A stretch of DNA of 64,000 bases. It comes from an uncultured Rikenellaceae bacterium. GTDB lineage: Bacteria; Bacteroidota; Bacteroidia; Bacteroidales; Rikenellaceae. The stretch lies in contig CAYJMA010000001.1 in assembly GCA_964371475.1 (NCBI GenBank), forward strand, positions 2,999 through 66,998, written 5' to 3'. Each line of letters opens with the position of its first letter. Position 1 is the first letter of the stretch. The notes beneath the pieces are model-generated. The model worked only from the letters and a program-made list of their open reading frames with translations. It was not told the DNA's origin and searched no databases. Positions 4,821 to 62,877 of this stretch are shown one piece after another. The translations under genes were made by a program, and so were the position numbers.

Positions 4821-5489
4821 ATGAAAAAAGTACTAAAATCATTAATTGTTTTCCTCTGCCTGGCAGCAACCCCAATGATTGCTCAAGCCGACGAGGTTTT
4901 AGAAGAGCTGGCAAAAACCAGAGAGAAAGTAGCAAAGCTCAAAGAAAATCAACCGAAGCCATCCGGTAATGAAGCCGTTGACGCATATGTAGAGTCTATT
5001 TACGTGTGTATTGATCAATCAATCGAGCTCTCAACCAAAGTTGAGGAGCTCTATCTTAATGCAATTGCTATTGCGGGTAATCAAGACGGTGCAAAGGGAC
5101 TCGTAGAGAAGATGCCCGATATTGATGAATTGGACGATTTACAAACCGAGATTGTGGATCACGCATCACTGCTAACAGCTATTGCAACGACAGCTCTACC
5201 GGCTACCAATGCAGCAAAGAGTCAGAAAAATCCTATAAAAATTGCTCGCGATCTAAAGAATATTTATGTAGGAGGTAAGGCGTATGGTCAGCTTGTTGCA
5301 AGCTCCGCACAGCAAGTTGCAACTATTGCAGGGATCATAAAAAGTGCAGCCTCGGGCTACAAAGACGGCGTAGAGGTTGAAAAGACCCAGGAGAAGGAGA
5401 AGAAATCTAAGAAGAAGGAGTCAAAGAAGTCAGAAGAGAGCTCTGAGGTTGATCTGCCAAGCGACGAAACTTCAGAGAGTGAGAAATAA
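4821..5489 (+). CDS. Secreted helical protein with a K/E/S-rich acidic-basic tail
   Basis: 222-aa ORF with a signal peptide (..CLAATPMIAQA). The C-terminus is KEKKSKKKESKKSEESSEVDLPSDETSESEK. It is the last gene of the five-gene cluster and a hairpin terminator follows. Confidence 0.55.
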   Translation: MKKVLKSLIVFLCLAATPMIAQADEVLEELAKTREKVAKLKENQPKPSGNEAVDAYVESIYVCIDQSIELSTKVEELYLNAIAIAGNQDGAKGLVEKMPDIDELDDLQTEIVDHASLLTAIATTALPATNAAKSQKNPIKIARDLKNIYVGGKAYGQLVASSAQQVATIAGIIKSAASGYKDGVEVEKTQEKEKKSKKKESKKSEESSEVDLPSDETSESEK

Positions 5490-45741: not shown

Positions 45742-46116
45742 CTATTTTTTTGTAAAAATTACAGTTGTTGCGCCAATTTCGGATGTTGTAATTAATGACA
45801 TCTTATTACCACTAACCGTGCCTCTAAGTGTTACGATATTGCCATCTGTCGCATTTAGAGTGCCTGCCATAGTTGTACCATCAAATGTGTAAGAACCATT
45901 GAAGTTTCCAAGTAGCGTGCCGTCATCAACGTCAACAACCCTGTAATTAAAAGTGTCCTCAGCAAACGTAATTGTTGCGGTTGCTGTCACTCCTCCACCT
46001 GTTTCTGTTGCTTCCCACGCTGTCCCAGCGAGTGAATTTGATGAATCCTTTTCGCAAGATGTGAAAATGCCTATTGAAAGGGTTAGTGCAACGATAAAAG
46101 ATAAGATTTTTTTCAT
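45742..46116 (-). CDS. Small lipocalin-like lipoprotein
   Basis: The track ORF extends to 46170. The ATG at 46116 gives MKKILSFIVALTLSIGIFTSC (lipobox). The mature part is beta-rich and G/T-rich (AGTAWEATE...). Confidence 0.6.
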   Translation of the reverse strand: MKKILSFIVALTLSIGIFTSCEKDSSNSLAGTAWEATETGGGVTATATITFAEDTFNYRVVDVDDGTLLGNFNGSYTFDGTTMAGTLNATDGNIVTLRGTVSGNKMSLITTSEIGATTVIFTKK

Positions 46117-46171
46117 AGTTTTATTGTTAAAATTAAAATTGTAAGACACTACCATTAGTGGTGAATTCATA

Positions 46172-46179
46172 CAAAGATA
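46172..46179 (-). promoter_or_regulatory. Bacteroides-type -7 box for the lipocalin-like gene
   Basis: The minus strand reads TATCTTTG. A second TATATTTG lies just upstream. Confidence 0.4.
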
Positions 46180-46241
46180 ACAAATATATACGAATTATCC
46201 AAAAAGGCTCAACCCCTAAGTCGAAATTATCGAAATAAAGA

Positions 46242-46249
46242 GTATATTT
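46242..46249 (+). promoter_or_regulatory. Bacteroides-type -7 box for the flippase gene
   Basis: TATATTTG at 46242-46249, only ~10 nt before the ATG at 46260. This implies a very short leader. Confidence 0.35.
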
Positions 46250-46259
46250 GCAGGTAATT

Positions 46260-47693
46260 ATGAGTTCAAAATTACTGAAAAATAGTATTATATATGCTGT
46301 GGGTGATATTATCCCACGCGTTATAATTTTTCTCATATTCCCAGTCCTAACTACGCACCTCTCACCAGCTGACTACGGAATTGTAAACTACGTAAATATG
46401 TTTATAACCCTCTTTGCGATTGTTAGCATATTGGGGCTGAATACCTACTATTTGGTTCACTATTTTAAGGTTGGAGATGTCGTTGCACAGCGCAAATTGC
46501 TGGGCAATATCACTCAATTTGTTGTGGGCATAAATCTCATATTGACCATACTGCTACTACTACTGGGCTACATTGCACCAACTGCATTTAGCTCAAATAT
46601 CGACTTTTTCCCCTATATCGCACTCGGTGTGGGGACGAACTTCTTTAATGTCTTTTCCATCCTACCCTCAGCACTATATCGAGTGCAAGAGCGCCCGCTA
46701 CCACTAGCAACTATAAACATTATAAAGGGTATTGTAACAATGGGGCTTACGCTAACGCTTGTAGTGGGTTTTGGATTTTCCGCCAAGGGTGTCCTCTGGG
46801 CGAACTTCGTGGTGTCGCTTCTTTTTGCACTGATATTTATAGCCATTACGCTCCGAAATATGGAGTTTAACCTCAACTGGCCGCAGATTAAATCCGCACT
46901 GCGATTCTCAATGCCTCTGGTACCCGGAGCAATTGCATACTTTGCGCTGTCTATGTCCGACAGATACTTCATAGATAAATACCTAAGCCTCACAGAATTA
47001 GGTATCTATACTACCGCCTCTACGCTTGCTATGATACTGAGCATCGTGTCGTATGGAGCCTATCGAGCATTTGAGCCATACTTCTTTAAGATATATGGTA
47101 GCGAAACCTTTACGCGTCAGTATAAAAACATTCAAAATCTATATCTCTTTGTCATTCTCTTCGGTGGAGCAGGTTTGAGTATATATGCCAGAGAGTTTTT
47201 TGAATTGTTTGCATCGAGTTCATACTCAATGGTCTACCTTTACGTTCCGATGGTTCAGGTCAGCGTCATCTTTATGGCAATGTCACTGCTCTTTGCAACC
47301 ATTGTTACGGCACAAGGAAAAACCAAGATCAATGCCCTGGCAAACATAATTGGTGGAGGGCTTAGCATTGCGCTCAACATACTCCTTATCCCACGTTTTG
47401 GTATTGTAGCATCGTGTATTGCCTCGTCGGTGGCAACGGCAACGATTATGATTATACTCTTTCGTAGCGCACGCCTCGGTGTGTCGTATGTTGCGCCAAT
47501 TGCCGCGTTTTTGCTCACCGCAACCTCAGTTGCACTCTGTGTGTACACCATTGATTTTGATGGTACGCTCTATGATATACTATTCAAAAGCGCGGTGCTC
47601 ATCATAACGATGATTGTTAACCTGCTGATTCTAAAAATCGATGTGCGAAAATATATATTTAGACACACCGCCACAAACATTACAAGACAATGA
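46260..47693 (+). CDS. wzx: Polysaccharide/oligosaccharide flippase (Wzx-like, MOP superfamily)
   Basis: About 477 aa, starting from the ATG at 46260 (the track begins at a TTG at 46248). N-terminal LLKNSIIYAVGDII and ~12-14 TM helices. Confidence 0.8.
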   Translation: MSSKLLKNSIIYAVGDIIPRVIIFLIFPVLTTHLSPADYGIVNYVNMFITLFAIVSILGLNTYYLVHYFKVGDVVAQRKLLGNITQFVVGINLILTILLLLLGYIAPTAFSSNIDFFPYIALGVGTNFFNVFSILPSALYRVQERPLPLATINIIKGIVTMGLTLTLVVGFGFSAKGVLWANFVVSLLFALIFIAITLRNMEFNLNWPQIKSALRFSMPLVPGAIAYFALSMSDRYFIDKYLSLTELGIYTTASTLAMILSIVSYGAYRAFEPYFFKIYGSETFTRQYKNIQNLYLFVILFGGAGLSIYAREFFELFASSSYSMVYLYVPMVQVSVIFMAMSLLFATIVTAQGKTKINALANIIGGGLSIALNILLIPRFGIVASCIASSVATATIMIILFRSARLGVSYVAPIAAFLLTATSVALCVYTIDFDGTLYDILFKSAVLIITMIVNLLILKIDVRKYIFRHTATNITRQ

Positions 47694-48721
47694 AACACCT
47701 TTTTGTAGTCCACTCAAACTTAACATACCTTGCTGCGCTTGCCACTGTTTACAAAGAGAATTTATGCCCTGAGGATGTTGTAATACTCGGCGATAAGTTT
47801 AGTGCGAGCTATCCCATCGAGACGCAGTTGGTGAAATCATTATCTGGAAATCAACTTTTGCGCTCTCCACGCCGAGCTCTCTTTTCGATTGGATATGTGG
47901 ATAAAATAATCAAACGAACTACAAATAGTGAACCATATGTGCTCTACGTTGCGGCGCTATATAATGTGCAAAGAATATGCTTTTCAAACTCTAAGTGTCA
48001 GGGGCTAAATTTTATAGAAGAGGGTTTGTCAGTCTATCTGTCCACTGTATCACTGTCGAGAATATTGTCAAACAACGAACAAACAAAATCACTGCGTAAT
48101 AGATCGTGTCGAACCTTTTTCAAAGACCTTTTTAAGTTGATTAAAGGATATAGCTACAAGATGCAAGCGTTGCCGTTTCTGTACAATGGCTACTCTAATC
48201 TTGAGGGTGTGAAGTTCTATGGTTTTAACAAAGAGTCGTTTTGTGGAGTGGATGATGTTCAGCAACTGTCATTTGTAGATACTATCAATCATTTTGATAT
48301 GAGATCTCAATTGGAGCTTGCTGGCGGTAATTTATGGATAGGGTCAAATATTGTATCGCTGGGCTTAGAGCCGCTTGAGAGTTATCTGAGCGCCATCAAA
48401 GAGGGTGTTGTAGAGTGTTTTGCTCATTCGAGCGGCACCCGCGCCTTTGTAAAGTTCCACCCAGCTGAGTGTGAGGCATCACGGAATGGCACTCTTAAGC
48501 TATTTGCTGATGCAGGTATAGAACCAGTTGTGGTGGATGATAGTGTGATCATTGAGGTAGAGATATTTTCAAATACGGGGGTTACGGTATGGGGAGTAGA
48601 TTCCAGTATTATGTACTACGCATCGTCGGCTGGCGTACGTTGCAAGTCGATAGTTGATCGATTGGTGAACTATCCTAAGGCAACACTTCCATTCTTTTGG
48701 GAGCGTGTTGAGACGGTATAG
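47690..48721 (+). CDS. Hypothetical protein, possibly a GT52-like or capsule glycosyltransferase (weak)
   Basis: 343 aa with an ATGA overlap with wzx. The N-terminus MKHLFVVHSNLTYLAALA resembles the start of GT52/sialyltransferase-like proteins from memory. No firm motif. Confidence 0.35.
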   Translation: MKHLFVVHSNLTYLAALATVYKENLCPEDVVILGDKFSASYPIETQLVKSLSGNQLLRSPRRALFSIGYVDKIIKRTTNSEPYVLYVAALYNVQRICFSNSKCQGLNFIEEGLSVYLSTVSLSRILSNNEQTKSLRNRSCRTFFKDLFKLIKGYSYKMQALPFLYNGYSNLEGVKFYGFNKESFCGVDDVQQLSFVDTINHFDMRSQLELAGGNLWIGSNIVSLGLEPLESYLSAIKEGVVECFAHSSGTRAFVKFHPAECEASRNGTLKLFADAGIEPVVVDDSVIIEVEIFSNTGVTVWGVDSSIMYYASSAGVRCKSIVDRLVNYPKATLPFFWERVETV

Positions 48722-48750
48722 AGCCTGTGCACCACCTATATCTAATGGTT

Positions 48751-49821
48751 TTAGAGAAGTTTTTCCTTAGCGATTACCTTTGCACAGGCAATAAATCCTG
48801 TTAGGAGTACAAGTAGTATTATTATCAATATTTTATTTGGCGAGGAGCTTCCAATAGGTCTTGTTGCAGGTTCAATTACCACGTAGACAGGAGTTTCGTT
48901 CTGCATTTTAAGTTTTGCATCTTCAAGGTTTTGCGCCAAGGTACTGTACACAGAGTAGTCAATATCTTTTTCTTCTTCGAGTCGTTGTAGCGATGTTAGA
49001 GCAAGCTGCGAGGTGTAGTTCCTACTATGGTCAGCAACCTTTGCCCAATTATTTAGCGACTCGTGATACTTTTGCTTGGCTTCGTCATACATCTGTTGGG
49101 TGAAGCGTAGAGTTTCCTTTGCCTTTTTGGTGCGATAGTCTACAATGTATCTCTGGATGTTCTGCACCACAACCTCTGCAATATCGCACGACACCTGAGG
49201 ATCTTGCATCTCCACGAAAACTGAAATTACAGAGGTGTTTTCGTCAATTGCAAGATAGATTCTACTCTCAATGGCCTGAAATATGGAGTACTGTTTGAGC
49301 GTAAGTGCCTGAATGTTGATTGAGTCAGCAGCAGCATTTTTGTCTTCGTCTTCCTCAGCGGAGGTAACCCACGATATGAGTTTGAGGGGTGCTCCGAGTA
49401 TGTAGCTCCACCACGGTGCTCTTTGTTCGTCGAGCATATAGTTGTACAGTGTGGAGGTGTACTCTCCATTTAGGGTTGTCACCTCAACGTTGAATAGATC
49501 TGTTATGAAGGGCAAACTGCTTACTACCTCTGGGTATAGCTCAGCAGAGATTGCATCGCCCCCCCCTGAACTCTGAGAGTCAAAGTCAATTCCAGCCATT
49601 GCCGCAAATCCACCCAGTGATCCAAGTCCTGAAAGGGATGATTGTATTTCGGGTGCTAATGTAACAGTTGTGGTGTACTCTCGCGGTATGCTAAATCCAA
49701 TGATTAGCCCCGCAACGACTCCACAAACACCCCATTTCATTATATACTTGCGCCGCTTCCACAACGTGGTTATAATCTTTGCAATATCAATTTCTTTGTC
49801 AAAGTTACTCTCCGCTTTCAT
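48751..49821 (-). CDS. wzz: Wzz-type chain length determinant protein
   Basis: 356 aa. IDIAKIITTLWKRRKYI followed by TM1, a long coiled periplasmic region, and a C-terminal TM preceded by the Pro-rich PATRPIGSSSPNK. Confidence 0.8.
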   Translation of the reverse strand: MKAESNFDKEIDIAKIITTLWKRRKYIMKWGVCGVVAGLIIGFSIPREYTTTVTLAPEIQSSLSGLGSLGGFAAMAGIDFDSQSSGGGDAISAELYPEVVSSLPFITDLFNVEVTTLNGEYTSTLYNYMLDEQRAPWWSYILGAPLKLISWVTSAEEDEDKNAAADSINIQALTLKQYSIFQAIESRIYLAIDENTSVISVFVEMQDPQVSCDIAEVVVQNIQRYIVDYRTKKAKETLRFTQQMYDEAKQKYHESLNNWAKVADHSRNYTSQLALTSLQRLEEEKDIDYSVYSTLAQNLEDAKLKMQNETPVYVVIEPATRPIGSSSPNKILIIILLVLLTGFIACAKVIAKEKLL

Positions 49822-49863: not shown

Positions 49864-50084
49864 CTATTTTTTTCGACGATGTGCAAATGCACCAGTGTCT
49901 TGATGGTGCACATCCTGCCCAAGAGCAGGGATATACAGTACGTTGTGTTTTAATGTAGTAATCGGAGATAATGCGATGTGGATTGATGAGCACAGCAATT
50001 GGGCATCGGAGTGTGTGTGTGAAGCGATGTTATAAATTATGGCGAAGATACCAACAAAGAAATCGAGGTAAACTAACTTTAATA

Positions 50085-50111
50085 TAAAAAAGAGCCTATT
50101 GTTTAGGCTCT
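50085..50111 (-). terminator. Intrinsic terminator closing the glycine-zipper module
   Basis: On the minus strand, AGAGCCTA-aacaa-TAGGCTCT is followed by TTTTTT. The stop codon of the 76-aa ORF lies inside the 3' arm of the stem. Confidence 0.65.
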
Positions 50112-50326
50112 TTTCTAATTTTAACTAAAGTAATTATTCTAAGAATAACTATTGATATGGCAAGAACAATTGTAGATACAAATAAGACTTTCCCTAATGT
50201 CATTAATGGTGATATTGTGAAATTCTCTATTTCAGTTATCACTAAATTAGCAATGATTAGTGCAAAGATAATCACCAAAATGGTCAAATGGGTTCTACCT
50301 CCTATAAAGTTTTCAAAAGTTTTCAT
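50096..50326 (-). CDS. 76-aa two-TM membrane protein (candidate immunity/partner protein)
   Basis: MKTFENFIGGRTHLTILVIIFALIIANLVITEIENFTISPLMTLGKVLFVSTIVLAISIVILRIITLVKIRKEPKQ. Its ATG (50324-50326) shares one base with the TAA stop of the upstream gene (TAATG). The longer track ORF up to 50518 is an out-of-frame read of the Gly-rich region. Confidence 0.6.
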   Translation of the reverse strand: MKTFENFIGGRTHLTILVIIFALIIANLVITEIENFTISPLMTLGKVLFVSTIVLAISIVILRIITLVKIRKEPKQ

Positions 50327-51090
50327 TATTCCCAAAACCAATCCCAAATTTGTTTTACAGCATACTCTGCGGAATTTGCAACACCTCCTGTTAAACCACC
50401 AACAATAGCACCAGGGACAGCGCCAGCTCCTCCTGCAAGTGATCCAACTCCAGCTCCTACCACAGCTCCTGCAACTGCGCCTGATACATCTTGACCACCA
50501 AACTCTTTCCAGCTCCATTCTGCACGAGTTAACACTCTTGTATTTGCACCAGTAATAGCTTCAACCCATTTTGCCGTATTTTTCTCCCAGTATATCAGAG
50601 TGTTTTTAGCAACAGATGCGCCACATAATAATGCAGACAAATCACTGCCTGTGCAGTTTAACTTTATCTCCTCTTCGATTGCTTCGATATGTTCAATAGC
50701 ATCTTTTGAATTTGAGAATTCAGAACTATAAAAAACTTTCTGAATTTTAGCATAATAGATTTTTGCAGTTGAGTCTGACAGTTCCGCAACAGATTCGTTT
50801 AATTCGCTTGCGCTACGTGTTATTACACTTTCGTACCCAGTATTGATATTATTATTATTTAAGAATTTTTCTATCGCATTATCAATAAATTGTCTTGAGA
50901 TTTCTCTCACACCATTCTTTGTAGTAGGCTGGGATTTAATTTCTTCGAGAATAAAATCTAATCCTTCATTGTGTAGTTCTCCAACCATTTCATAGTCAAG
51001 TGTATGACTTTTCGTTGTTTCAACATTGGACTTGCAAGATGCAAAAGCAATGCTTGAAAGTGTTAGTAAAGTGAGTAATAATTTTTTCAT
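50326..51090 (-). CDS. Lipoprotein with a helical N-terminal domain and a C-terminal glycine-zipper segment
   Basis: 254 aa with lipobox IAFASC. The C-terminus is GGQDVSGAVAGAVVGAGVGSLAGGAGAVPGAIVGGLTGGVANSAEYAVKQIWDWFWE (repeated GxxxG/A). Confidence 0.7.
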   Translation of the reverse strand: MKKLLLTLLTLSSIAFASCKSNVETTKSHTLDYEMVGELHNEGLDFILEEIKSQPTTKNGVREISRQFIDNAIEKFLNNNNINTGYESVITRSASELNESVAELSDSTAKIYYAKIQKVFYSSEFSNSKDAIEHIEAIEEEIKLNCTGSDLSALLCGASVAKNTLIYWEKNTAKWVEAITGANTRVLTRAEWSWKEFGGQDVSGAVAGAVVGAGVGSLAGGAGAVPGAIVGGLTGGVANSAEYAVKQIWDWFWE

Positions 51091-51127: not shown

Positions 51128-51423
51128 AAAAGTGCACTTATTTCGGATGCAAAGGTATTATTATTATTATTATTTACAAAATTATATACAAAAAATTTTA
51201 TAAAAAATATGTAAAAGGAGTGTAGTAGCAGATTAGGCAGAGGTTGCCGCCAAGCAGAGCATCATCAGCCAAACCTATAAGAGACAATTGCAAAACAACT
51301 ATATGTTCGAGTAGCTCAAAGATTTTTAGCTCTTTTCTCGATTCAGGAATCGAGACTCGCTCATATCTGACACTATCTGAATAACAGTGAATTTACCCCA
51401 AAAAATATTGACTAACCACCGTG
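51128..51423. repeat. 296-bp direct repeat, copy 1 (appears identical to 55535-55830)
   Basis: Base-by-base reading shows the same 296 nt at both sites, with an offset of 4407 bp. The flanks diverge immediately on both sides. Confidence 0.9.
51150..51180 (-). promoter_or_regulatory. Canonical Bacteroides promoter (-33 TTTG, 19-nt spacer, -7 TACCTTTG) inside repeat copy 1
   Basis: The minus strand reads TTTG (51180-51177), then 19 nt, then TACCTTTG (51157-51150). The start codon of the glycine-zipper gene is at 51090. Confidence 0.6.
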
Positions 51424-51524
51424 CGGAGCTCTGAATTGGTTAATCGCCCGAGGGCATATATTGCGCACTTTATTGCCAAGAATCTTATGCATATCGGTGT
51501 TTGTGACAAGTGCTAAGTGCAGAT

Positions 51525-52018
51525 TTACTTTGATGTAGGCGTGCCGATAGATCTTATACGTTTCTTATACGCTTCCCAAATCATAGGATAGAAAATAGGA
51601 CTGCCACTCATTAAAACACTTCCTTTTGAGTCCACTAGAAATATATGTTTATGGGATCTTCTGGCAAGTTATTGTCCCTTTCAAAGTTGCCACTGGGATC
51701 AAAAATTATTGGGTGCGTAAACTTTAATAGCGTTATGTTTTGCTTTATCTCCACACTTTAAGAGTCAGCGTTTAGGATGTAAATAAAGCTAACGGGCAGA
51801 GAGTCCTTCGAGGCATTTTTCATAAGCCACTTCCACCTGCTTAGTTCTTTTATTCTACACGAAGCACATCCCTGAGCATCAAAATAAGCAACAATACGAT
51901 AGTTATTATCTACAACAATAGAATCATCAAAATGAATATTTGTGGGGATACTATTGTTTGATAAACAACTATTCATAATGCTGAGAAGCAGACCTATGAA
52001 AAACAATCTTACCCTCAT
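51525..52018 (-). pseudogene. Decayed thioredoxin-fold (TlpA/ResA-like) lipoprotein gene
   Basis: The 86-aa ORF (lipobox IMNSC, CASC motif) ends at an in-frame TAA (51758-51760). The same frame continues as SVEIKQNITLLKFTHPIIFDPSGNFERDNNLPEDPINIYF and then hits a stop. After a 1-nt frame change it reads VDSKGSVLMSGSPIFYPMIWEAYKKRIRSIGTPTSK*. Confidence 0.65.
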
Positions 52019-52020
52019 AA

Positions 52021-53043
52021 TTAAATTCCATATTTGGAGTCTAAGTATTCATATGTTTTAATTATTACGGAGTCCTCGTAGTGAGTGAGATAATCATTAT
52101 CAACATAGATGTCGGGCACTACACCTATGCCTTCCAGCGGAATCATACCTGGAGTTAAAACCCTCTCTACCGAGAATGTATATGTCCAGCCATTGGGCAA
52201 AATCCCACTAATGGGTGCAGAGTACGATCCACTCGTTGTAGCACCAATAAATGTACATTCGTCAAATTGCTTTGCACATAATAAAAAACGTTCCGATGCG
52301 CTCTGTGTTAGCTTATTAGTTAGTACAACAGTTACCTTGTCGCTGAGGCTATTTTCGTGGAGATAATTATGATGTGCTTGTGGTGGACTAAAATCGTTAC
52401 TACCTGCCCCAGTTTTCTTTTGCGTGTAATGTACAGTATTCTGATTCATCGCAAAATAAGATGCCAAATAAAAGGCATTATAGGTCATTCCGCCAGGGTT
52501 GGCTCTAAGGTCAATTATAATTGCATCGCACATAGAGACTTTGCTAAGCAACTTGTCAATATCACTAAGAGTATAGTTTCCCTCATCGAAAGTTGAAATG
52601 TGTATGTACCCGATATTTCGCACAAAATCATATATCCAATATAGTGCCCCATTAGAATTCATATCGTGCAGGGAATAACCAAGTGTGTACCCAACTTCCA
52701 CTATATCAAAACTATTAAAATCACTTATACTACCAGCTGAATTGAAATATTTCCTTGGGTGAAAACCATTGGGATTTGACATTGATACGTGTGCATCATT
52801 TAGGTGGCGCATCATCGATGACATAACGTCCCATAGGCTGTCCTGGCTTATACCATCAGTCACACGGGGGCGATAAACTTGGTAGAGGCTATCCCAGTTT
52901 ACACCTCTATCCTCAAAGACCGCATAGTGGGTATTCATTTCTTCCCAATAGGTCTCAAATACATCAAGGTTGGTCGTAGTCGGAGCTTTATAGCAACTCG
53001 ATGCAACAAAAAGCGTTGCAAGGCTGTAAAAAATCTTTTTCAT
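52021..53043 (-). CDS. S41-family peptidase lipoprotein
   Basis: 340 aa with lipobox FVASSC. S41 signature IIIDLRANPGGM and a downstream Ser/Lys region (TQSASERF). Confidence 0.75.
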   Translation of the reverse strand: MKKIFYSLATLFVASSCYKAPTTTNLDVFETYWEEMNTHYAVFEDRGVNWDSLYQVYRPRVTDGISQDSLWDVMSSMMRHLNDAHVSMSNPNGFHPRKYFNSAGSISDFNSFDIVEVGYTLGYSLHDMNSNGALYWIYDFVRNIGYIHISTFDEGNYTLSDIDKLLSKVSMCDAIIIDLRANPGGMTYNAFYLASYFAMNQNTVHYTQKKTGAGSNDFSPPQAHHNYLHENSLSDKVTVVLTNKLTQSASERFLLCAKQFDECTFIGATTSGSYSAPISGILPNGWTYTFSVERVLTPGMIPLEGIGVVPDIYVDNDYLTHYEDSVIIKTYEYLDSKYGI

Positions 53044-53825
53044 AATCTAAATCTCACTTTTGCCATTAGTGTGTTGTCGATGATAGATACAGCAGAGGGT
53101 TTTAAGTATTGTGTGGTACGAAGCTCATAACTCACGCCAACAGCCACGACATTTGATAACGCATAACAGTATTCAACTCCAAGATTCAAATCCCAGAATT
53201 GTCCTATTGTGGCGAAATCACCGCTAAAAAATTCACCAAGTATATACTCGCAATAATCATGTGGTTGATCGTCATAGTTGGGGAGACGACTATATGGTGG
53301 GCGAGAAACAAAGCCGAGCAGATGAAAATCAAGCCTCGTGGAAATATTGTTTCGATTGAAATTCCAGTTACCTTGGATAATTGGACGAAGACTGTGCGAG
53401 GCGATGTAGCTGTATAGCGAGAGTGTTCGTAGCGAAAAATCAATCCTCATCTGATACCCACCACCCGCAAGCATAGTGAAGTTGTTCCAATTTCCCACCT
53501 TTACGAGGTAATTTGCAAATAGGTTGAAGTTATAGTTATCTGTGGCGGTATATCTACTGGGCGCACTAATTTGACCAATTGCACCGCCGAAGCCAAATTC
53601 AATAACAGAACCACACTGCCAACTATATCCGGCCGAAATGGTGGTGGCAAAATCTGACTTTATATAGTTCAGAGGACTGAGTGTCTTATCGTGAAAGTAC
53701 CCAGCTCTATACCCTGTTCCCATATCAATGTTCCATCCTTTTGTCTGACTGAAACCTACAGTAGAGAGTAGCGTAAAGACGACTGTTGCTAAAAATCTCA
53801 TAAAAAATTTGTGCTGTATCTTCAT
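53040..53825 (-). CDS. Predicted outer-membrane beta-barrel protein of unknown function
   Basis: 261 aa with a signal peptide (..LLSTVGFSQ). Alternating hydrophobic/aromatic beta-strand pattern throughout. ATGA overlap with the S41 gene. Confidence 0.55.
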   Translation of the reverse strand: MKIQHKFFMRFLATVVFTLLSTVGFSQTKGWNIDMGTGYRAGYFHDKTLSPLNYIKSDFATTISAGYSWQCGSVIEFGFGGAIGQISAPSRYTATDNYNFNLFANYLVKVGNWNNFTMLAGGGYQMRIDFSLRTLSLYSYIASHSLRPIIQGNWNFNRNNISTRLDFHLLGFVSRPPYSRLPNYDDQPHDYCEYILGEFFSGDFATIGQFWDLNLGVEYCYALSNVVAVGVSYELRTTQYLKPSAVSIIDNTLMAKVRFRL

Positions 53826-53891
53826 TGCAAAGATACAAATTAATTTGGAGCTACTATTAATATAAATAAACCATTTCAGTCTTTGTTCATA

Positions 53892-54755
53892 CTAAATTAC
53901 TGTTATATCCCTAACTAATACAAATGTAAGGAGATTTGCTGTACTACCTGATAATTTATAAGTGGTCTCATCAACAGTGGTCTCGGCAATATTTCCTCTA
54001 AGTAATGTAAGATTAATTATTGCAGAATCCGGAATACCATCAAGCAACTTAGGATCTAAAACTACTTTCCCATTATCATTGGCGATAAACTCGGTTCTTC
54101 TTACACTGGATGACTCACAAGAGCCATCATACATAGTGCGTCCATCCCATTCTATAACAAGTAGTAGACCATTATTATTATCCATATCAGCATTCCAACT
54201 TACAGATAAATTTTTGTAATAACATAGTGGGTATAAATCTTCCTCAGTTGTAATTTTAGGAGAAGTAATAGTAATTTCTTCAGGTACATACATATTAATT
54301 GTTGTATCAGAACTACCTCCGCCCTTGGTTAAACTATTAGCGGTAAGCTTAAATTGAACGTTATTTCCATATAAACTATTGAAATCAATGTCATTAGCCT
54401 TTGCAACAGATCTTGTTGAACTATAACTATTAATAGTCACACCATTTACACTAATTATGCAATTCTGATTAGGCAGTGTGCCTCTAGTCAAAAGAGCAAG
54501 ATCAGGAATGGTAATCGCAGAATGTACGTTTTCTCCAATAGGAGTGTCTTTTACTGATTGGATTGACACTGTATAGTTGGCAGGAGAAAAATGCTTTTCA
54601 TACACACCTGCTGAATCTGAAATAAAGCTCTCCTCTACTATGGGGTCAATTTGAGTTTGCGATGTAAAATTATTATCTGCTGTGTCAACCTTAACTGACT
54701 GACAAGAGGTCGTGAAAAATACAGCGCATAGTATTGTGTAAATGTATATCTTCAT
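53892..54755 (-). CDS. Lipoprotein of unknown function (beta-rich)
   Basis: 287 aa with lipobox FFTTSC. No motif recognised. Confidence 0.55.
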   Translation of the reverse strand: MKIYIYTILCAVFFTTSCQSVKVDTADNNFTSQTQIDPIVEESFISDSAGVYEKHFSPANYTVSIQSVKDTPIGENVHSAITIPDLALLTRGTLPNQNCIISVNGVTINSYSSTRSVAKANDIDFNSLYGNNVQFKLTANSLTKGGGSSDTTINMYVPEEITITSPKITTEEDLYPLCYYKNLSVSWNADMDNNNGLLLVIEWDGRTMYDGSCESSSVRRTEFIANDNGKVVLDPKLLDGIPDSAIINLTLLRGNIAETTVDETTYKLSGSTANLLTFVLVRDITVI

Positions 54756-54780
54756 AACTATTTTATTGTTTTATTAATAT

Positions 54781-55482
54781 TTAGAATGCTATCATACTTA
54801 GAGTGCTTTTGTGTCTTTGCCTGTATTCATCTTCCACATAAATATCCCTGACAGGAACATCAGGATTAAGACGTGTAGTTCCATCCCAAAGAACATCTGT
54901 AATAAGCCTACCTGGTTTTGGGACAATATCATAACTGTATTGTGAGAAAACAAATTGATTACGCAGAGTAAGGTTAAACTCCCATTCTACATGTCGTTCC
55001 ATAGATTTTAGATGCTCGTGATCCTTCCAGGATTTAGACTTTATAAGAATTCTAATTGTGCTTGTGCCAGGAGTATAACCAACATTTTTGATTTCACAAA
55101 ACTGACCATTCTCGTGCGTGTTCATTTGCGTTGGAGACAAGATTGTCTTGACAGCCTCGCCTTCACAAGTAGCGGCACTAACTCGAATCTCCATTTTGGA
55201 TTGGTTTGCATAATTAAATAGTTCAGAAATAGTACCGCCGGTATAGGTGTTACTATATGTGTTTATTATGCCACTTGCACTCAAGGCTGACTTGCCAGCA
55301 GCAGATAAGGTCCAATCCTTATCATAAAATGTGACAGGAACATCCCTTAGTATTAAATTGTTGTGACTATTACTAAAAAAACTGCTACATTTTTCTCTTG
55401 TGCCTGTACATTTATTACTCATCAGTAATAAGCACGTAAACACACCAAGCATTAACAGAAATCCGGGTTTCATTCTTTTCAT
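54781..55482 (-). CDS. Secreted protein or lipoprotein of unknown function
   Basis: 233 aa with a hydrophobic signal containing Cys residues (GVFTCLLLMSNKC). First gene after repeat copy 2. Confidence 0.55.
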   Translation of the reverse strand: MKRMKPGFLLMLGVFTCLLLMSNKCTGTREKCSSFFSNSHNNLILRDVPVTFYDKDWTLSAAGKSALSASGIINTYSNTYTGGTISELFNYANQSKMEIRVSAATCEGEAVKTILSPTQMNTHENGQFCEIKNVGYTPGTSTIRILIKSKSWKDHEHLKSMERHVEWEFNLTLRNQFVFSQYSYDIVPKPGRLITDVLWDGTTRLNPDVPVRDIYVEDEYRQRHKSTLSMIAF

Positions 55483-55534
55483 AGTCGTGAATTATTAAAG
55501 TGATTAATATTAAAATAATAATGTAATTTGGAAT

Positions 55535-55830
55535 AAAAGTGCACTTATTTCGGATGCAAAGGTATTATTATTATTATTATTTACAAAATTATATACAAAA
55601 AATTTTATAAAAAATATGTAAAAGGAGTGTAGTAGCAGATTAGGCAGAGGTTGCCGCCAAGCAGAGCATCATCAGCCAAACCTATAAGAGACAATTGCAA
55701 AACAACTATATGTTCGAGTAGCTCAAAGATTTTTAGCTCTTTTCTCGATTCAGGAATCGAGACTCGCTCATATCTGACACTATCTGAATAACAGTGAATT
55801 TACCCCAAAAAATATTGACTAACCACCGTG
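55535..55830. repeat. 296-bp direct repeat, copy 2 (appears identical to 51128-51423)
   Basis: See copy 1. Confidence 0.9.
55557..55587 (-). promoter_or_regulatory. Canonical Bacteroides promoter (-33 TTTG / -7 TACCTTTG) inside repeat copy 2
   Basis: Same sequence as 51150-51180. The start codon of the 233-aa gene is at 55482. Confidence 0.6.
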
Positions 55831-55865: not shown

Positions 55866-55907
55866 CAAAAAACAAAAAGGGTAGGGGGTGTATCTCCCCC
55901 TACCCTT
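55866..55907 (-). terminator. Intrinsic terminator of the ABC efflux operon
   Basis: A 12-bp perfect stem, AAGGGTAGGGGG (55877-55888) with CCCCCTACCCTT (55896-55907). On the minus strand it is followed by TTTTTGTTTTTT. Confidence 0.75.
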
Positions 55908-55945
55908 GTCCCAAATAGATTCTCACCTATATATATATATATTTA

Positions 55946-56667: not shown

Positions 56668-58998
56668 TTATTCAGATTTTAAGGATTGTATCGGATTGCG
56701 GTTCGCAACGCTGTAACATTGGAAGGTTACCACGGCTATGACCAGTGTGGTAATCACCACAAATACTATCACAAAGACCCACCAGTATAGTGGCACTCGA
56801 TAGCTAAAACTCTCTAACCACCAGTTCGTACCCCACAGAGCAAGCGGTACTGCTACGACAAAACTCACAAGTAGAGTGGTTAGCACCGAGCGGTTGAATC
56901 TCACTAGCAGCCCCCATACTGTCGAACCATAGACTTTGCGTAGCGCGATCTCTTTGTAGCGATGCTGCATATCGAATAGCACCATTCCGAAGATTCCCAT
57001 TAGCGAGATTATAAACGTTACGATAGAAAATAGCGTTACAAGCTCTTCGTTGCTTTGCTCCTTGCCGTACATCTCCTCGATGTGTTGGTTCAGCGGTACT
57101 ATTCTGCGACTTTGGGCCTGAGAGTTTGCATCTAAGTCCTGTAATGTGTTGCGCAGGAGCTTCTCCACTTCACTATATTTTGCCGTAGGGCTTAGTCGCA
57201 TATAGAGTTGCTCGGCGTAGGGTTTGATATTTTCCGGAGTGGTGATAAATGCCATTGGAGCTACCACATCTCGTAGCGAGGAAGCGTGTACATCACCCAC
57301 AACGCCGACGACCTCCATATCAACTCCATCGATAATGTCTCCAACCTTGAGATCATATGCCTCTTGCATACTCTTGTTTATTATCACCTTGCCACCGCCC
57401 ATATCATCTCTAAATGCCTCACCCTCCAAGACCTCAATGCCCAGAACATCGAGCGTGTGGGCATCACAATACAGAGCGGTATAGCGCTTCTCTGCACCCT
57501 CTTTGTCCTTGGTGTATGACCACGCCGGGTATTCGTTCACAATGTTCCCCATCATTAGACTTGCATTTTCTATCATTGGGCTTTTTAGCAGCTCTTTTCT
57601 GAATGTTTCAAGGTTAAAGTTGGAGTTTTGTAGCGACATAGTTACCACCCTATCCCTGTCGAAGCCATAGTCATACTCTCTTAGGTAGTTGTTCTGCAGG
57701 ATAATAAACAGAGCAATCACCGCAAATACAAACGACACGACAAATTGCACAGCAGAGAGTCCAGCACGAAGCACTCTACCACTTTTTGAGCGTCCAAACG
57801 AGCCTTTGAGTACCAGCGTAGGTTTGAACTTGGTGATATAGAATGCAGGGAAGAGTCCTATAACAAGCCCAAGTAAGATGATTAATCCCACGCCAAGTAG
57901 CAGAGGGTAGAGCACCTCGGTTACGGAGATCGGCACGCGGAAGAGCTCTGCTATGTAGCTCTGCGAAGCGAGCTGGATCCACACCACGCTAATGGCATAG
58001 CTCAACAACATAAATAATAGTGCCTCGAATATAATATTTGCCCGAAGTGCCGCTACCGGTGCTCCAAAGACCTTGTTGATGTTCACCGCACGGATGCGAA
58101 TAGGTACAAGAGACATAAAGAAGTTCAGGTAGTTGATAATTGCAAGGGCAATGATAATAATGGCAATGATTATCGAGATAAGCGTTACTGTCATATTGCC
58201 CCCCATTGGGAAAATGGGAGAAAAATACTCCTCGCCTACCGCCTCAAAGCGCACTATGTCGTGAGTAAGCTCTGGCATCTGCAATTTTTCCTTGATGTCA
58301 TTACTCGTAAGCTCGATCATCTCTGCAAGCGCAGCGTTATGATCTACCCCTTCCTTTAGTTTGTAGTAGTATGAGAAGGACCAGTGCCCGAAGTCGTCAA
58401 TGAGCAGATCTCCTATATTTACAAGTGCCATATCGTTTATTCGGTTATTGGAGGGTAGTGGCTCATAGACTGCAACGACTCTTAGGGTATCACCACCGCA
58501 GAGGATTAGTTCACCGACGGGGGACTCCTCCACCTCGAATAGCTTTTGGCTAAGTGTGAGGGGTAGAATCACCGTGTTTTCGCTATTGAAGTCCTCGAAT
58601 CTGCCCTCTAAGCACTTCAGTCCGAAGGTCGAGGGTACTCCATACGAGGCTCTGTACGTTCCGTGTATAAACTCTTTATCAGAGTTCAAGCGATTAAAGA
58701 CAGGGTCGTTGAATCCGATGAAGGTGCCGTAGCTCTCCACGGCAGGGGAGGAGATGCCCAACTTTTCGCCCATAGGTCGTGAAACCGATGGCCAGTACTT
58801 ATCTGCATCAACGGAGCCAAGCACACGATAGATACGCTCGTGATCGGGAATCGAACGGTTGTATGAGAGCTCCCACCATACCTGCGAGGCGAGGATGATA
58901 AAGACCGCAAAGGCAATCGATAGTCCAAGGAGGTTGAGCACCGATGCGACTCTGAACCGCGTGAGCGTTACCCAAAAGTTTTTCAGTATGTTTTTCAT
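56668..58998 (-). CDS. FtsX/MacB-type ABC transporter permease
   Basis: The start was moved to MKNILKNFWVTLTRFRVASVLNLLGLS (58998), which parallels the N-terminus of the upstream paralog. The track's 68-aa extension overlaps that gene. Duplicated FtsX 4-TM modules with large periplasmic domains. Confidence 0.85.
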   Translation of the reverse strand: MKNILKNFWVTLTRFRVASVLNLLGLSIAFAVFIILASQVWWELSYNRSIPDHERIYRVLGSVDADKYWPSVSRPMGEKLGISSPAVESYGTFIGFNDPVFNRLNSDKEFIHGTYRASYGVPSTFGLKCLEGRFEDFNSENTVILPLTLSQKLFEVEESPVGELILCGGDTLRVVAVYEPLPSNNRINDMALVNIGDLLIDDFGHWSFSYYYKLKEGVDHNAALAEMIELTSNDIKEKLQMPELTHDIVRFEAVGEEYFSPIFPMGGNMTVTLISIIIAIIIIALAIINYLNFFMSLVPIRIRAVNINKVFGAPVAALRANIIFEALLFMLLSYAISVVWIQLASQSYIAELFRVPISVTEVLYPLLLGVGLIILLGLVIGLFPAFYITKFKPTLVLKGSFGRSKSGRVLRAGLSAVQFVVSFVFAVIALFIILQNNYLREYDYGFDRDRVVTMSLQNSNFNLETFRKELLKSPMIENASLMMGNIVNEYPAWSYTKDKEGAEKRYTALYCDAHTLDVLGIEVLEGEAFRDDMGGGKVIINKSMQEAYDLKVGDIIDGVDMEVVGVVGDVHASSLRDVVAPMAFITTPENIKPYAEQLYMRLSPTAKYSEVEKLLRNTLQDLDANSQAQSRRIVPLNQHIEEMYGKEQSNEELVTLFSIVTFIISLMGIFGMVLFDMQHRYKEIALRKVYGSTVWGLLVRFNRSVLTTLLVSFVVAVPLALWGTNWWLESFSYRVPLYWWVFVIVFVVITTLVIAVVTFQCYSVANRNPIQSLKSE

Positions 58999-59030
58999 TG
59001 ATTTGATAGTATTAATTCTATTGATACAGT

Positions 59031-61439
59031 TTATGAATTGCGCAGAACATTGATAGGGTTTTGAGTTGTAGCTTTGTAGGTTTGCATAATTACAGTTCCT
59101 GCGACAATTGTTGCCACAATTGCCACTGCAACGACAAATACCCAGAGGTAGAGTTCGGTGCGATATGCATAGCTCTCCAGCCACCACAAAATTCCATACC
59201 ACGACAGTGGAATTGCGATCACTGCACTAAGTGCAACGACCAATAAATATCCTTTGAGCATCTTGACAAGGAGTTGCGATATGGATGATCCATAGACCTT
59301 GCGCAGTGCTATTTCCTTGCGCCGATGGAAGGTCTCAAAGATCACCATACCAAAGACACCGACCAGAGAGATCATCACCGCTATGGCAGCAAATAGAGTT
59401 ATAAGCAAGCTGGTGTTTTGCTCCTTGTGGTAGATCGTCTGGAGTTGTTCGTCAAAGAACCTCGCCTCGATTGTTTCAGGATTACGCTCGGGTGATAATT
59501 CCTTAATTACACGCTCGATGTACTCCATAGTCTGGGCAATGTTCGCCCCGGGGGCAATACGCACGTAAACCGTACTGGGAGCTCTCCACCCATCGCTACC
59601 AAACTCATAGAGGCACATTGGCTCAACCTCGCTCTGAAGTGAACGGAAGTTAAAATCCTTGACAATACCCACCACATCGGCAGGCTCGTCTGCGTGCCCC
59701 ATGAATGTGTCGCCCACGTTTATGTTGTACTTTTTGGCGGCAGTTTCGTTGAAAATCACCGTGCCATTGATTTTGGTAGCATCCGTCTCTATAAAAGTTC
59801 GCCCCTCTACAATCTCCATACCCATAAGCTCGGGATAGTTCCACGACGAGGGGAATGAGTATACTGTTGCAGATTCACCATTTATATTTCGCCCCCAGCG
59901 CATACCAAAGTCCATTAAGTTGCCATCTCCAAACGCCACGTCCTCGATGGCGCTATTCTCCTTCAGGCGGTTTTTGAGCGTGGTGGGGTCATTTGCGAGC
60001 ACACCGACATCTGCTGTGGCAATTCTATCTCGCTTAAAGCCATAGTCGTAATTCATCATATAGTTGTTTTGGATCACCACGAATAGCGAGGCTATAATCA
60101 GTGATATCGAGATCACAAACTGAAAGGAGGTAAGCACCGCACGATACCTTTGCCCTCGCTTACTACGCCCAAAAGAGCCTTTGAGAGTAAGCGTTGGCGG
60201 AAACTTGGTGATGTAAAAGGCTGGGAAAAGTCCAGAGAATATGCCTACTGCCACGGCAAATCCCAACGAGCAAGCTATTATTGCGATATTGTCTCCAAAG
60301 GCAAGCGAAGAGCTAACCAGCTCTGCTATAAAACTCCCCGAGAGTAGGTAGAAGATAAGCAGTGATAGGGAGAAGGAGAGTAGCATAATGCCCACAGCTT
60401 CGCCTATGATGTTGGCGCGGAGTGCCGCCACTGGTGCACCAAAGACCTTGTTGATGTTTACAGCACGGATACGTACCGGTACGAGCACCATAAAGAAGTT
60501 TATGTAGTTTATAACCGCAATGATTACAATAAGTAGCGCAATGAGTAGTAGCGTGAGCGAGAGGGTGCTATTACCCAAGTAGAGCCCGCTAAGCTCGCCG
60601 CCGAAGTAGGTATCCAGAAGCGGAATATAGCTCAAATATCCCTCCGTTACGCTCTCCATCTCCTTGTCTAAATCTTCCTTGCTGACACCATAACGGTTGA
60701 CTATCAGCTCCACGAGGTTGGGCGTAACTGCCTCTGCCACAGCCTCGGGAGATACCCCCTTTCGTAGCTTTACAAGGTAGAGGTAGCTCCACTCGCTGGT
60801 GCTCTCCAAGCCCATATCCCAAATGTCGACAAGCACGGGATTTTCCGCCTCCTTGCCGCCCAAGAGTGTGTTGTCTGGCATATCCTCATATATTGCCACC
60901 ACCTCGTAGCTATTTTTTCCCTCCTTTATGATCTTTCCCATTGCGCTTAGGTACTCATCGCCAAGCATAGCACGCGCCATACTAAGGGGGATAGCCGCGG
61001 CATCTGCCTTTTCGATAGCTGCAAAATTACCGCTTACGATTTCGAGGTTCATCACCTCTGCAAAGGCAGGCGATACATAAGCAGTGGAGCGTGAGAGGAT
61101 TTTGTCGTTCCCATCAACGGTGAAATCCCTCGGCCAATACACCCAAATAGGACTATATGCCTCCACCTCGGGCGTGCTGGTGCAAATCACCTCGGCAAAG
61201 GGACGAGCAACAAAGGTAGCATAGCCGTCGTCGCCAAAACCAGATAGTTTGTTGTGAATACCCACGATGTGTACCTGCCCTTCGGGGTCGTGCGCACGGT
61301 TAAAGGTGTGCTCCCACCAAAGCTGCGAGCCAATAATCATAAGAACCGCAAAGGCAACGGATAACCCCAAGATGTTAAGCAACGATGCGATCCTAAAGCG
61401 AGTGAGCGTTACCCAAAAGTTTTTTAGAATGTTTTTCAT
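59031..61439 (-). CDS. FtsX/MacB-type ABC transporter permease (paralog)
   Basis: 802 aa. MKNILKNFWVTLTRFRIASLLNILGLS. The conserved block NINKVFGAPVAALRANII is shared with the downstream paralog. Confidence 0.88.
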   Translation of the reverse strand: MKNILKNFWVTLTRFRIASLLNILGLSVAFAVLMIIGSQLWWEHTFNRAHDPEGQVHIVGIHNKLSGFGDDGYATFVARPFAEVICTSTPEVEAYSPIWVYWPRDFTVDGNDKILSRSTAYVSPAFAEVMNLEIVSGNFAAIEKADAAAIPLSMARAMLGDEYLSAMGKIIKEGKNSYEVVAIYEDMPDNTLLGGKEAENPVLVDIWDMGLESTSEWSYLYLVKLRKGVSPEAVAEAVTPNLVELIVNRYGVSKEDLDKEMESVTEGYLSYIPLLDTYFGGELSGLYLGNSTLSLTLLLIALLIVIIAVINYINFFMVLVPVRIRAVNINKVFGAPVAALRANIIGEAVGIMLLSFSLSLLIFYLLSGSFIAELVSSSLAFGDNIAIIACSLGFAVAVGIFSGLFPAFYITKFPPTLTLKGSFGRSKRGQRYRAVLTSFQFVISISLIIASLFVVIQNNYMMNYDYGFKRDRIATADVGVLANDPTTLKNRLKENSAIEDVAFGDGNLMDFGMRWGRNINGESATVYSFPSSWNYPELMGMEIVEGRTFIETDATKINGTVIFNETAAKKYNINVGDTFMGHADEPADVVGIVKDFNFRSLQSEVEPMCLYEFGSDGWRAPSTVYVRIAPGANIAQTMEYIERVIKELSPERNPETIEARFFDEQLQTIYHKEQNTSLLITLFAAIAVMISLVGVFGMVIFETFHRRKEIALRKVYGSSISQLLVKMLKGYLLVVALSAVIAIPLSWYGILWWLESYAYRTELYLWVFVVAVAIVATIVAGTVIMQTYKATTQNPINVLRNS

Positions 61440-61458
61440 ATATTTTTGTTGTTTATTT

Positions 61459-62703
61459 TTAGTTTAGTGTAATAACCTCGCTGTCGCCAAAGCTCTGGTA
61501 GGAGCTAATGATGACCTTTTCTCCAGCCTCAAGTCCTTCTGTAACCTCGTAGTGTTGAGGGTTTTGACGGCTGATCTTAATCGTGCGTTTGACTGCCTTG
61601 TCGCCCTCCACGACATAGATCCACTGACCGCCCGTGGTTTGAAAGAACCCACCGCGAGGGATAATAATAGCCTCGGTCGGTTGCCCAAGCTCAAGGTTAA
61701 CGTAGTAGGTCTGCCCCGTGCGAATGTTCTCGGGCCGCGCGCCGCTAAAGGTCAACCACGTGCGAAACTTACCATCTCGAACCTCAGGAAAAACTCGACT
61801 CACCTGCAACTCATACCGCTCACCACCTCGCTCAAAGGTAGCACTAAGACCTCGACTTACTCTATCTATGTAGTGCTCATCAATTAGAGCCTCGATCTTA
61901 AAGTCGCTAAGGTCGTTGATCTGCCCCAACTTCTGACCCGATACAATAGATTGACCCAACACAACATCCAACTGACCAAGCTCACCATCAATTATCGAAC
62001 GCACGTTGAGATTCTCCACACGCTGACGTACAAGCTCCATATTACGCTGCATCGACACGAGGTTCTGCTCCAAATTCCCCACCTGCAACTCCCGAAATAT
62101 AGAATCCTGCTTCTCACGCTCACGCAACAGTGCACCATTCTTTACCGAATACTCATAATCCTCCTTCGCCACCAAGTACTCCTCCTCGGATATCAATGCC
62201 TCTTCCCATAGTGCCATATTTTGCTCATACTTCCTGCCCTTGCGAGCAATCTCCATATCGACAAGCAACATCTCACGGCGAATACTCAGCTTCTCTTGCT
62301 CCATCTGCACACGGGTGTTGCGAAGGAAGTTCTCCTTCTCGGCAAGAGATGCCTCGCTCTCAAGAATCTGAATGTTGAGTTGAGGGTTGCTCAGTCGCAG
62401 TATCACATCGCCCTTGGCAACTGTCGAACCCTCCTCAATGATGCGCTCCTCGACAATACCCCCCTCAAGAGGTGTTACCTGAACCACTGTTATCGGAGTA
62501 ACCGAACCGTTAACTCGCACAAAATCATTAAACTCACCACGCTCAACACTTGCTATGGTAACCATATCACCGTCAACTCGCAGCGATGCCCTATGGTCGC
62601 CAAATATAAACCACGCACCAAGTGAAACTACAATTAGTGCAACTACTCCCCAACCGATGTGCTTCTTGCGAAACGGTGTCTTGTGTTCAATCTTTCTATC
62701 CAT
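61459..62703 (-). CDS. HlyD-family efflux periplasmic adaptor
   Basis: 414 aa. N-terminal TM, lipoyl-like hairpin (GDVILRLSNPQL), long coiled coil and a beta-barrel C-terminus. Confidence 0.85.
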   Translation of the reverse strand: MDRKIEHKTPFRKKHIGWGVVALIVVSLGAWFIFGDHRASLRVDGDMVTIASVERGEFNDFVRVNGSVTPITVVQVTPLEGGIVEERIIEEGSTVAKGDVILRLSNPQLNIQILESEASLAEKENFLRNTRVQMEQEKLSIRREMLLVDMEIARKGRKYEQNMALWEEALISEEEYLVAKEDYEYSVKNGALLREREKQDSIFRELQVGNLEQNLVSMQRNMELVRQRVENLNVRSIIDGELGQLDVVLGQSIVSGQKLGQINDLSDFKIEALIDEHYIDRVSRGLSATFERGGERYELQVSRVFPEVRDGKFRTWLTFSGARPENIRTGQTYYVNLELGQPTEAIIIPRGGFFQTTGGQWIYVVEGDKAVKRTIKISRQNPQHYEVTEGLEAGEKVIISSYQSFGDSEVITLN

Positions 62704-62877
62704 TTTTGTTTTTTATTTTACTTGTAATTCTCTCTCTCTCTCTGTACTTGGTAGTGTGCCAAAGGCGTGCCACTATTGTTTTTTAACTCATTATCAATTA
62801 TTTAGCCCTATCAAGGCTCTTTGTATATGTCTAAAAATTAGACACAGAGTGTATTATTATTTGACACTCCGGTCAAC

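Follow-up and report, generated by a model that had tools for sequence, protein, structure and literature searches.

A perfectly repeated 296-bp sequence with a predicted promoter lies before two unrelated envelope gene modules in an uncultured Rikenellaceae bacterium

The DNA considered here is a 64-kb stretch (hereafter the window) of contig CAYJMA010000001.1 from an uncultured Rikenellaceae bacterium, in which a 296-bp sequence, termed R, occurs twice in direct orientation with a start-to-start distance of 4407 bp. All genes around both copies are on the minus strand. In the direction of transcription, copy 1 is followed by module 1, a pair of genes for a lipoprotein and a small membrane partner, and copy 2 by module 2, a longer run of genes for lipoproteins, an outer-membrane β-barrel and a peptidase (Table 1). 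The envelope character of the modules is indicated by the S41 peptidase, the β-barrel model and the lipobox signal peptides seen in the translations, and no paralogy was found between modules 1 and 2.

The two copies of R match at every position (296/296), as reported in a first-pass annotation of the sequence together with their 4407-bp spacing, and a BLASTN comparison, the check suggested there, made here with R against the window, found these two copies alone. The abrupt divergence of the flanks described in the same annotation is also evident: at either border the first bases outside R differ between the copies, the flanks compared in register are 20–24% identical over 20–100 nt, which is the random level, and their local alignment score is not above that of shuffled sequence. 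A 34-mer taken out of R has two matches in the window against 0.00 expected, and no third or diverged copy was detected in the 64 kb by BLASTN or nhmmer with R as query. With 0 differences over 296 sites, divergence between the copies is below approximately 1% (95% upper bound); this "perfect" identity may be slightly overstated, as a short-read assembler collapses near-identical copies.

R has a guanine-cytosine (GC) content of 33% and is non-coding, as had been stated earlier: stop codons occur throughout all six frames and the longest open reading frame (ORF) is 46 aa from a TTG start, which rules out a coding remnant. An RNA gene or riboswitch within R is likewise ruled out by Rfam, which returned nothing at gathering thresholds and noise alone at E<=10, and by folding, in which z-scores of -0.36 and +0.43 on the two strands indicate that R folds no better than shuffled sequence.

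Near its gene-proximal border, each copy of R contains a predicted promoter for the primary sigma factor of Bacteroidota, sigma-ABfr, the consensus of which is TTTG at -33 and TAnnTTTG at -7, about 19–21 nt apart (PMC7366714). Both elements, the 19-nt spacing and a same-strand gene start shortly downstream are found at each copy, in line with the promoter proposed in the first-pass annotation. In the window as a whole, the -33/-7 motif has 8 matches against 1.3 expected, and five of the eight are just upstream of minus-strand gene starts, namely those behind both R copies, the Wzz gene, a 142-aa gene and a 464-aa gene; thus, given its enrichment and its placement before gene starts, the motif seems to be a marker of genuine promoters here. 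R extends 22 nt beyond the -7 box on the minus strand, so only ~15–18 nt of predicted transcript would be common to both copies, close to the ~15 nt estimated previously. The distance from the end of R to the ATG is 37 nt for copy 1 (ATG 51090) and 52 nt for copy 2 (ATG 55482), or 59 and 74 nt when counted from the end of the -7 box.

Two further elements within R are possible sites of regulation. The promoter spacer consists almost entirely of a trinucleotide microsatellite (Table 1), and the two (AAT)6 tracts are the sole trinucleotide repeats of at least 5 units in the window, while 319 kb of Bacteroidales loci retrieved as a comparison set contain none of this length. As the promoter needs ~19–21 nt between its elements, steps of +/-3 nt, giving 16 or 22, could alter its strength through slippage, and the (AAT)6 spacer is therefore a plausible candidate for a slipped-strand tuning site. 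The second element is a perfect 20-bp palindrome, TCTCGATTCAGGAATCGAGA, which has two matches in the window against 0.03 expected, both within R; judged by its shape, it may be the operator of a dimeric regulator, and there is no regulator gene nearby. An imperfect palindrome of 14–16 nt around GTGCAC also falls right on the border of R nearest the genes and has no partner elsewhere.

Table 1. Coordinates of the R copies, of the elements predicted within them and of the surrounding features, numbered from the first position of the window.
Feature	Position	Strand	Basis or detail
R copy 1, non-coding promoter cassette before module 1	51128..51423	-	100% identity to copy 2
R copy 2, non-coding promoter cassette before module 2	55535..55830	-	100% identity to copy 1
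Predicted core promoter, copy 1: -33 TTTG, 19-nt spacer, -7 TACCTTTG	51150..51180	-	consensus match
Predicted core promoter, copy 2: TTTG-N19-TACCTTTG, as in copy 1	55557..55587	-	consensus match
(AAT)6/(TAT)6 microsatellite forming the promoter spacer, copy 1	51156..51174		18 of 19 spacer nt
(AAT)6/(TAT)6 microsatellite forming the promoter spacer, copy 2	55563..55581		18 of 19 spacer nt
Perfect 20-bp palindrome TCTCGATTCAGGAATCGAGA, copy 1	51336..51355		156–175 nt upstream of -33
Perfect 20-bp palindrome TCTCGATTCAGGAATCGAGA, copy 2	55743..55762		156–175 nt upstream of -33
Module 1 gene 1: 254-aa lipoprotein, C-terminal glycine zipper	50326..51090	-	family alignment, AlphaFold2 (AF2)
Module 1 gene 2: 76-aa membrane partner	50096..50326	-	start overlaps stop codon of 254-aa gene
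Module 2 gene 1: 233-aa secreted/lipoprotein-like orphan	54781..55482	-	no family match
Module 2 gene 2: 287-aa lipoprotein	53892..54755	-	translation; homologues 29–39% identical
Module 2 gene 3: 261-aa outer-membrane β-barrel	53040..53825	-	AF2 model, fold matches
Module 2 gene 4: 340-aa S41 peptidase lipoprotein	52021..53043	-	Pfam Peptidase_S41, 5.9e-27
Module 2 gene 5: CxxC lipoprotein, 86 aa before in-frame TAA	51635..52018	-	translation
Unique 211-bp spacer, module 2 to copy 1	51424..51634	-	no hairpin plus T-run
Strong terminator of MacB-type ATP-binding cassette (ABC) operon	55877..55907	-	free energy (dG) -20.7 kcal/mol
Terminator closing the module block	50088..50114		dG -15 kcal/mol, T-run

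The glycine-zipper Pfam matches of the 254-aa lipoprotein of module 1 are below threshold, and its match to the SlyB glycine-zipper sequence reaches only E 0.045. Its family of 10 members has a conserved C-terminus, and the AF2 model, a confident one, is all-helical with a predicted local distance difference test score (pLDDT) of 81. A fold search of the PDB with this model gave no significant match (best E 0.49), and a likeness to α-pore-forming toxins was considered and set aside as weak and not significant. The gene pair is kept as a unit in a 55%-identical homologue on a 1216-bp Logan contig (L002). The ends of that contig (positions 1–35 and 1182–1216) form an inverted repeat of ~30 nt, identical at 26 of 30 positions and with the core TTGGACAACAATATAT, an indication that inverted repeats enclose the gene pair in that organism; the window does not contain this motif.

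In module 2, the genes of which are closely packed, the 261-aa barrel is modelled by AF2 as all-beta with a pLDDT of 90, and its best PDB folds are the 10-stranded barrels Pla, OmpT and OpcA (E 2e-8, template modelling score about 0.6); its family is small, with 62 representatives. The barrel gene and the S41 gene overlap by 4 nt, and the pair is also adjacent, with the same overlap and in another context, in a Rikenellaceae metagenome-assembled genome (MAG; L023). Homologues of the 287-aa lipoprotein occupy other gene contexts that do not include the barrel and S41 pair, and module 2 thus looks composite. In L023, 99 nt from the start of a split Phage_integrase gene are repeated with 75% identity closely downstream of the S41 gene (5226–5324 and 7485–7583), so the pair may have integrase remnants close by in that genome. 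Gene 5 of module 2 has no Pfam match, and it is solely a CASC motif that would hint at a thioredoxin-like protein. Its reading frame is interrupted by a TAA at 51758–51760, after codon 86, with 40 further codons open; it is probably a pseudogene, perhaps a fresh one, or the product of a sequencing error. The five-gene module of the first-pass annotation is therefore better described as four intact genes and an interrupted fifth.

The upstream ABC operon ends in a terminator hairpin 46 nt ahead of copy 2, which insulates copy 2 from that operon. The only other combination of a hairpin and a T-run found in the block is the terminator downstream of module 1, there being none between the two modules; copy 1 thus probably serves as a promoter inside a single long block of transcription. 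As both modules lie between the same two terminators, transcription from copy 2 would be expected to continue through copy 1 into module 1. The spacer that separates module 2 from copy 1 does not resemble the DNA upstream of copy 2.

The ~6-kb block at 49.8–55.9 kb has a GC content of 0.37 compared to 0.44 for the whole window, and GC at third codon positions is 0.23–0.40 in its genes compared to 0.44–0.56 in flanking genes. The rest of the window is ordinary chromosome, with genes for FeoB, AhpC/F, Ppk, LigA, DnaJ/GrpE, a BamA-like protein, glycolysis and LysRS. The block is a low-GC island, most likely an accessory one with horizontally acquired modules.

As a low-GC segment of 4.1 kb lies between the direct repeats, the R copies could be read as the left and right attachment sites (attL/attR) of an integrated non-autonomous island consisting of module 2. 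This reading is extremely unlikely, as R at 296 bp far exceeds typical att cores, module 1 has an equally low GC content outside the bracketed segment, no integrase is located inside or nearby, and neither a tRNA gene nor the 3' end of a gene is present as a target. A Pfam scan for integrases, transposases, recombinases and resolvases found none in the 64 kb, in agreement with the earlier annotation; it covered ORFs of at least 110 aa taken as window genes, with alternative-frame ORFs skipped. There are no tRNA genes in the window.

The borders of R likewise show no sign of a mobile element. Its ends (CACGGTGG... and ...GTGCACTTTT) are not complementary, so there are no terminal inverted repeats, and target-site duplications are absent, the flanks being TTTTTCA/CGGAGCT at copy 1 and TTGGAAT/TACTGGT at copy 2; on these two features, R does not read as an insertion sequence (IS) or a miniature inverted-repeat transposable element (MITE). 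A search for inverted-repeat pairs (at least 10 of 12 matching) yielded nothing at copy 2 and, at copy 1, only chance pairs rich in AT. With no pair common to both copies and no adjacent tyrosine or serine recombinase, an inverton is rejected as well, although one inverton-type trait is present in the near-identical cassette of ~300 bp at lipoprotein/barrel loci (here two 296-bp copies). The earlier view that R is neither a classic IS nor an invertible promoter, and that flanking inverted repeats are missing, is thus borne out by looking for the features that define these elements. The combined lack of a recombinase, transposase, terminal inverted repeats, target-site duplications and tRNA genes in the 64 kb argues against an IS or MITE, an inverton, an integron-like array and an att site alike.

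The rAID-1 arrays of Bacteroidales are defined by a XerD-family recombinase, which is conserved, and by arrays of as many as 31 small genes of the immunity type (Ross et al., 10.1101/471110). They share with the island at R the accessory genes, a skewed GC content, repetitive intergenic sequence and the bacterial order, and as the repetitive sequence and the skewed (here low) GC are two of three rAID-1 hallmarks (10.1101/471110), R could be the junction of an integron-like or rAID-1-like cassette array with its recombinase encoded elsewhere. The self-contained nature of both modules, and the recurrence of the glycine-zipper pair between 30-nt inverted repeats on L002, would fit such an array. 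In contrast to rAID-1, however, the island has no array of immunity-type genes and is bounded by the ABC ATPase and Wzz genes; there is no XerD-type or other tyrosine recombinase in the 64 kb, no match to defence or immunity families was found, only two cassettes are present, and no attC-like or dif-like site is seen in R by eye. A cassette array is therefore very unlikely.

A striking parallel in size, in genomic role and in the kind of genes downstream is found in Bacteroides thetaiotaomicron, in which near-identical 301-bp invertible promoter cassettes lie before eight S-layer loci for lipoproteins and OmpA β-barrels (Porter et al., 10.1101/521070). R has in common with them a length of ~300 bp, non-coding sequence, a near-consensus Bacteroides promoter and repetition before lipoprotein/barrel operons. 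The S-layer cassettes, however, have pairs of 17-nt imperfect palindromes and adjacent tyrosine recombinase genes, undergo inversion and precede paralogous genes (10.1101/521070), whereas R has no inverted-repeat pair shared by its copies and no recombinase in the 64 kb, and its downstream modules are unrelated. The R copies further differ in being tandem-direct, 4.4 kb apart and part of one terminator-bounded block.

A second parallel is provided by the vlhA lipoprotein genes of Mycoplasma gallisepticum, which have conserved promoter regions with (GAA)n, the repeat number of which gates expression (PMC6258824). Both systems place different lipoprotein genes behind a conserved promoter region with a trinucleotide microsatellite. 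Those genes belong to another phylum and another sigma factor, however, and their GAA tract is ~40 nt upstream of the transcription start and not between the promoter elements; dozens of paralogous genes with documented length variation stand against two unrelated operons with six units in both copies of R. Promoters may also be brought to genes by IS-borne outward promoters or captured by duplication, as in the activation of cfiA and nim in Bacteroides and rnk-citT in E. coli. R resembles these cases in that a ready-made promoter is copied before a gene set otherwise without one, and differs from them in having no transposase, terminal inverted repeats or target-site duplications, and in that the duplicated part is a 296-bp regulatory segment and not neighbouring genes. 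In comparing these systems, R works like a shared promoter cassette but is not a member of the S-layer inverton, rAID-1 or vlhA families. Duplicated promoter cassettes before surface-gene operons are a known kind of arrangement, and R is a further case.

Searches outside the window bear on whether R could be a member of a dispersed, multi-copy family of promoter-bearing repeats, MITE-like or similar to the S-layer cassettes, of which two copies happen to fall in the window. The sharp borders of R, its non-coding nature and the outward-facing promoter at one end would be expected of such a repeat. A 25-mer from R has 0 matches in GTDB representative genomes, however, and three R fragments have 0 matches in IMG/VR; a 22-mer has one match in JGI metagenomes, which on alignment is a chance match in unrelated GC-rich DNA, and a BLASTN search of plasmids and phages with the whole island gave no match. 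Taken together with the lack of any further copy, intact or diverged, in the remaining 63 kb, of terminal inverted repeats and target-site duplications, and of a recombinase or transposase in the 64 kb, these results make a dispersed family unlikely, though less so than an att site or a cassette array.

Relatives of the locus are equally lacking in R. No R-like sequence was found upstream of homologues of the glycine-zipper lipoprotein, the barrel or the 287-aa lipoprotein, and no long intergenic repeats resembling R were found in related loci. The nearest GTDB genomes are uncultured Rikenellaceae MAGs with permease identities of 42–61% and ATPase identities of 78–82%; they retain the operon of HlyD, permease and ATPase genes and have nothing in common with the window downstream of the ATPase, so the ancestral state is not inferable. 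These relatives carry two to four permeases of the FtsX/MacB type. All six of the window proteins checked (6/6) form singleton clusters, from one NCBI contig.

The full identity of the copies, their sharp borders and the unrelated flanks point to one recent, discrete DNA event. On balance, R is probably a recently duplicated promoter cassette before two unrelated envelope modules in a low-GC island, a better fit than transposition, site-specific inversion or slow concerted evolution. The origins offered in the first-pass annotation were recent duplication, gene conversion or selection for co-regulation; recent duplication is favoured here, and gene conversion between old paralogous upstream regions is unlikely, as homology stops abruptly with no diverged extension past the borders of R. 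With A, B and C standing for the sequence upstream of copy 2, module 2 and module 1, respectively, recombination within R would be the simplest single event to give the order A-R-B-R-C. By one route, a circular unit of R and a module would have inserted in Campbell fashion; by another, unequal exchange would have taken place with a sister or donor molecule that had R beside the other module. Either could have placed the 4407-bp unit of R and module 2 beside an existing R and module 1, or the reverse. In its consequences, the arrangement would have both modules start transcription at the same promoter, under the same 243 bp of upstream regulatory DNA including the 20-bp palindrome. Module 1 would probably also be reached by read-through from copy 2, with copy 1 serving as an internal booster promoter.

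The order of the contig itself could be questioned, as the sequence comes from one 87-kb NCBI contig of an otherwise unsampled organism, probably a MAG. If strains were mixed, or if the true arrangement were A-R-C with a separate 4407-bp circle of R and module 2, the identity of the copies would come from repeat collapse, and the path A-R-B-R-C would be expected to yield the same assembly graph as A-R-C with an R-B loop. Such an artefact of assembly topology is decidedly unlikely: family scans found no replication or mobilisation genes in module 2, which makes a free replicon unlikely; the B-to-R and A-to-R junctions are both needed in reads to build the contig; and composition is similar over the whole island.

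Several points weigh against a recently duplicated promoter cassette. The promoter is predicted from the match to the consensus alone, and both microsatellite tracts have six units, with no length polymorphism between the copies. A Campbell-type origin requires a donor with R already beside module 2, none of which is documented. R DNA is carried by one genome alone, which leaves no basis for reconstructing the ancestral state or the direction of the event, and the copy count of two covers the 64-kb window rather than the genome. The finding is accordingly a limited one, a single occurrence in one uncultured genome, which is biologically sensible and mildly unusual.

If R is a recently duplicated promoter cassette, it would be a clean natural case in which a Bacteroidales genome from the gut or another host habitat wires newly acquired envelope genes into expression through a copied promoter cassette and not a newly evolved one. 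Direct repeats of ~300 bp are efficient substrates for RecA, and deletion or amplification of the 4407-bp unit is therefore to be expected at an appreciable rate, so that one module could be lost or amplified in a single recombination step; the arrangement would then be either young or under selection. In Bacteroidales, the (AAT)n spacer would in turn be a candidate, open to testing, for the tuning of surface-gene expression by slippage. A more far-reaching version, speculative and given a low probability, is that R is a portable, recombinase-free Rikenellaceae promoter cassette, acting both as a homology patch for the RecA-dependent swap, loss or amplification of surface modules and, through (AAT)n, as a tuned switch of the -33/-7 spacing. 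It would imply slipped-strand phase variation in Bacteroidales through the (AAT)n spacer; to our knowledge, phase variation in this order is otherwise ascribed nearly always to DNA inversion, with invertases dominating the field.

The neighbours on both sides of the island have features of their own. Upstream of copy 2, the operon at 56668–63948 on the minus strand contains an HlyD-family gene, permeases of the FtsX/MacB type and one ABC ATPase; three permeases are in tandem, two of them full-length paralogues with 37% identity and one shorter, and the DNA repeat families D2 and D3 of the window are segments of these paralogous genes. A (TA)7 tract at 55928–55941 lies between the stop codon of the ABC ATPase and the terminator hairpin. 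On the other side, a fragmentary polysaccharide locus adjoins the island at 45742–49821, with genes for a Wzx-like flippase, a 343-aa protein and the Wzz chain-length determinant; the terminator that closes the module block is followed by a consensus promoter belonging to Wzz at 49887–49856 (minus strand) and then by the Wzz gene.

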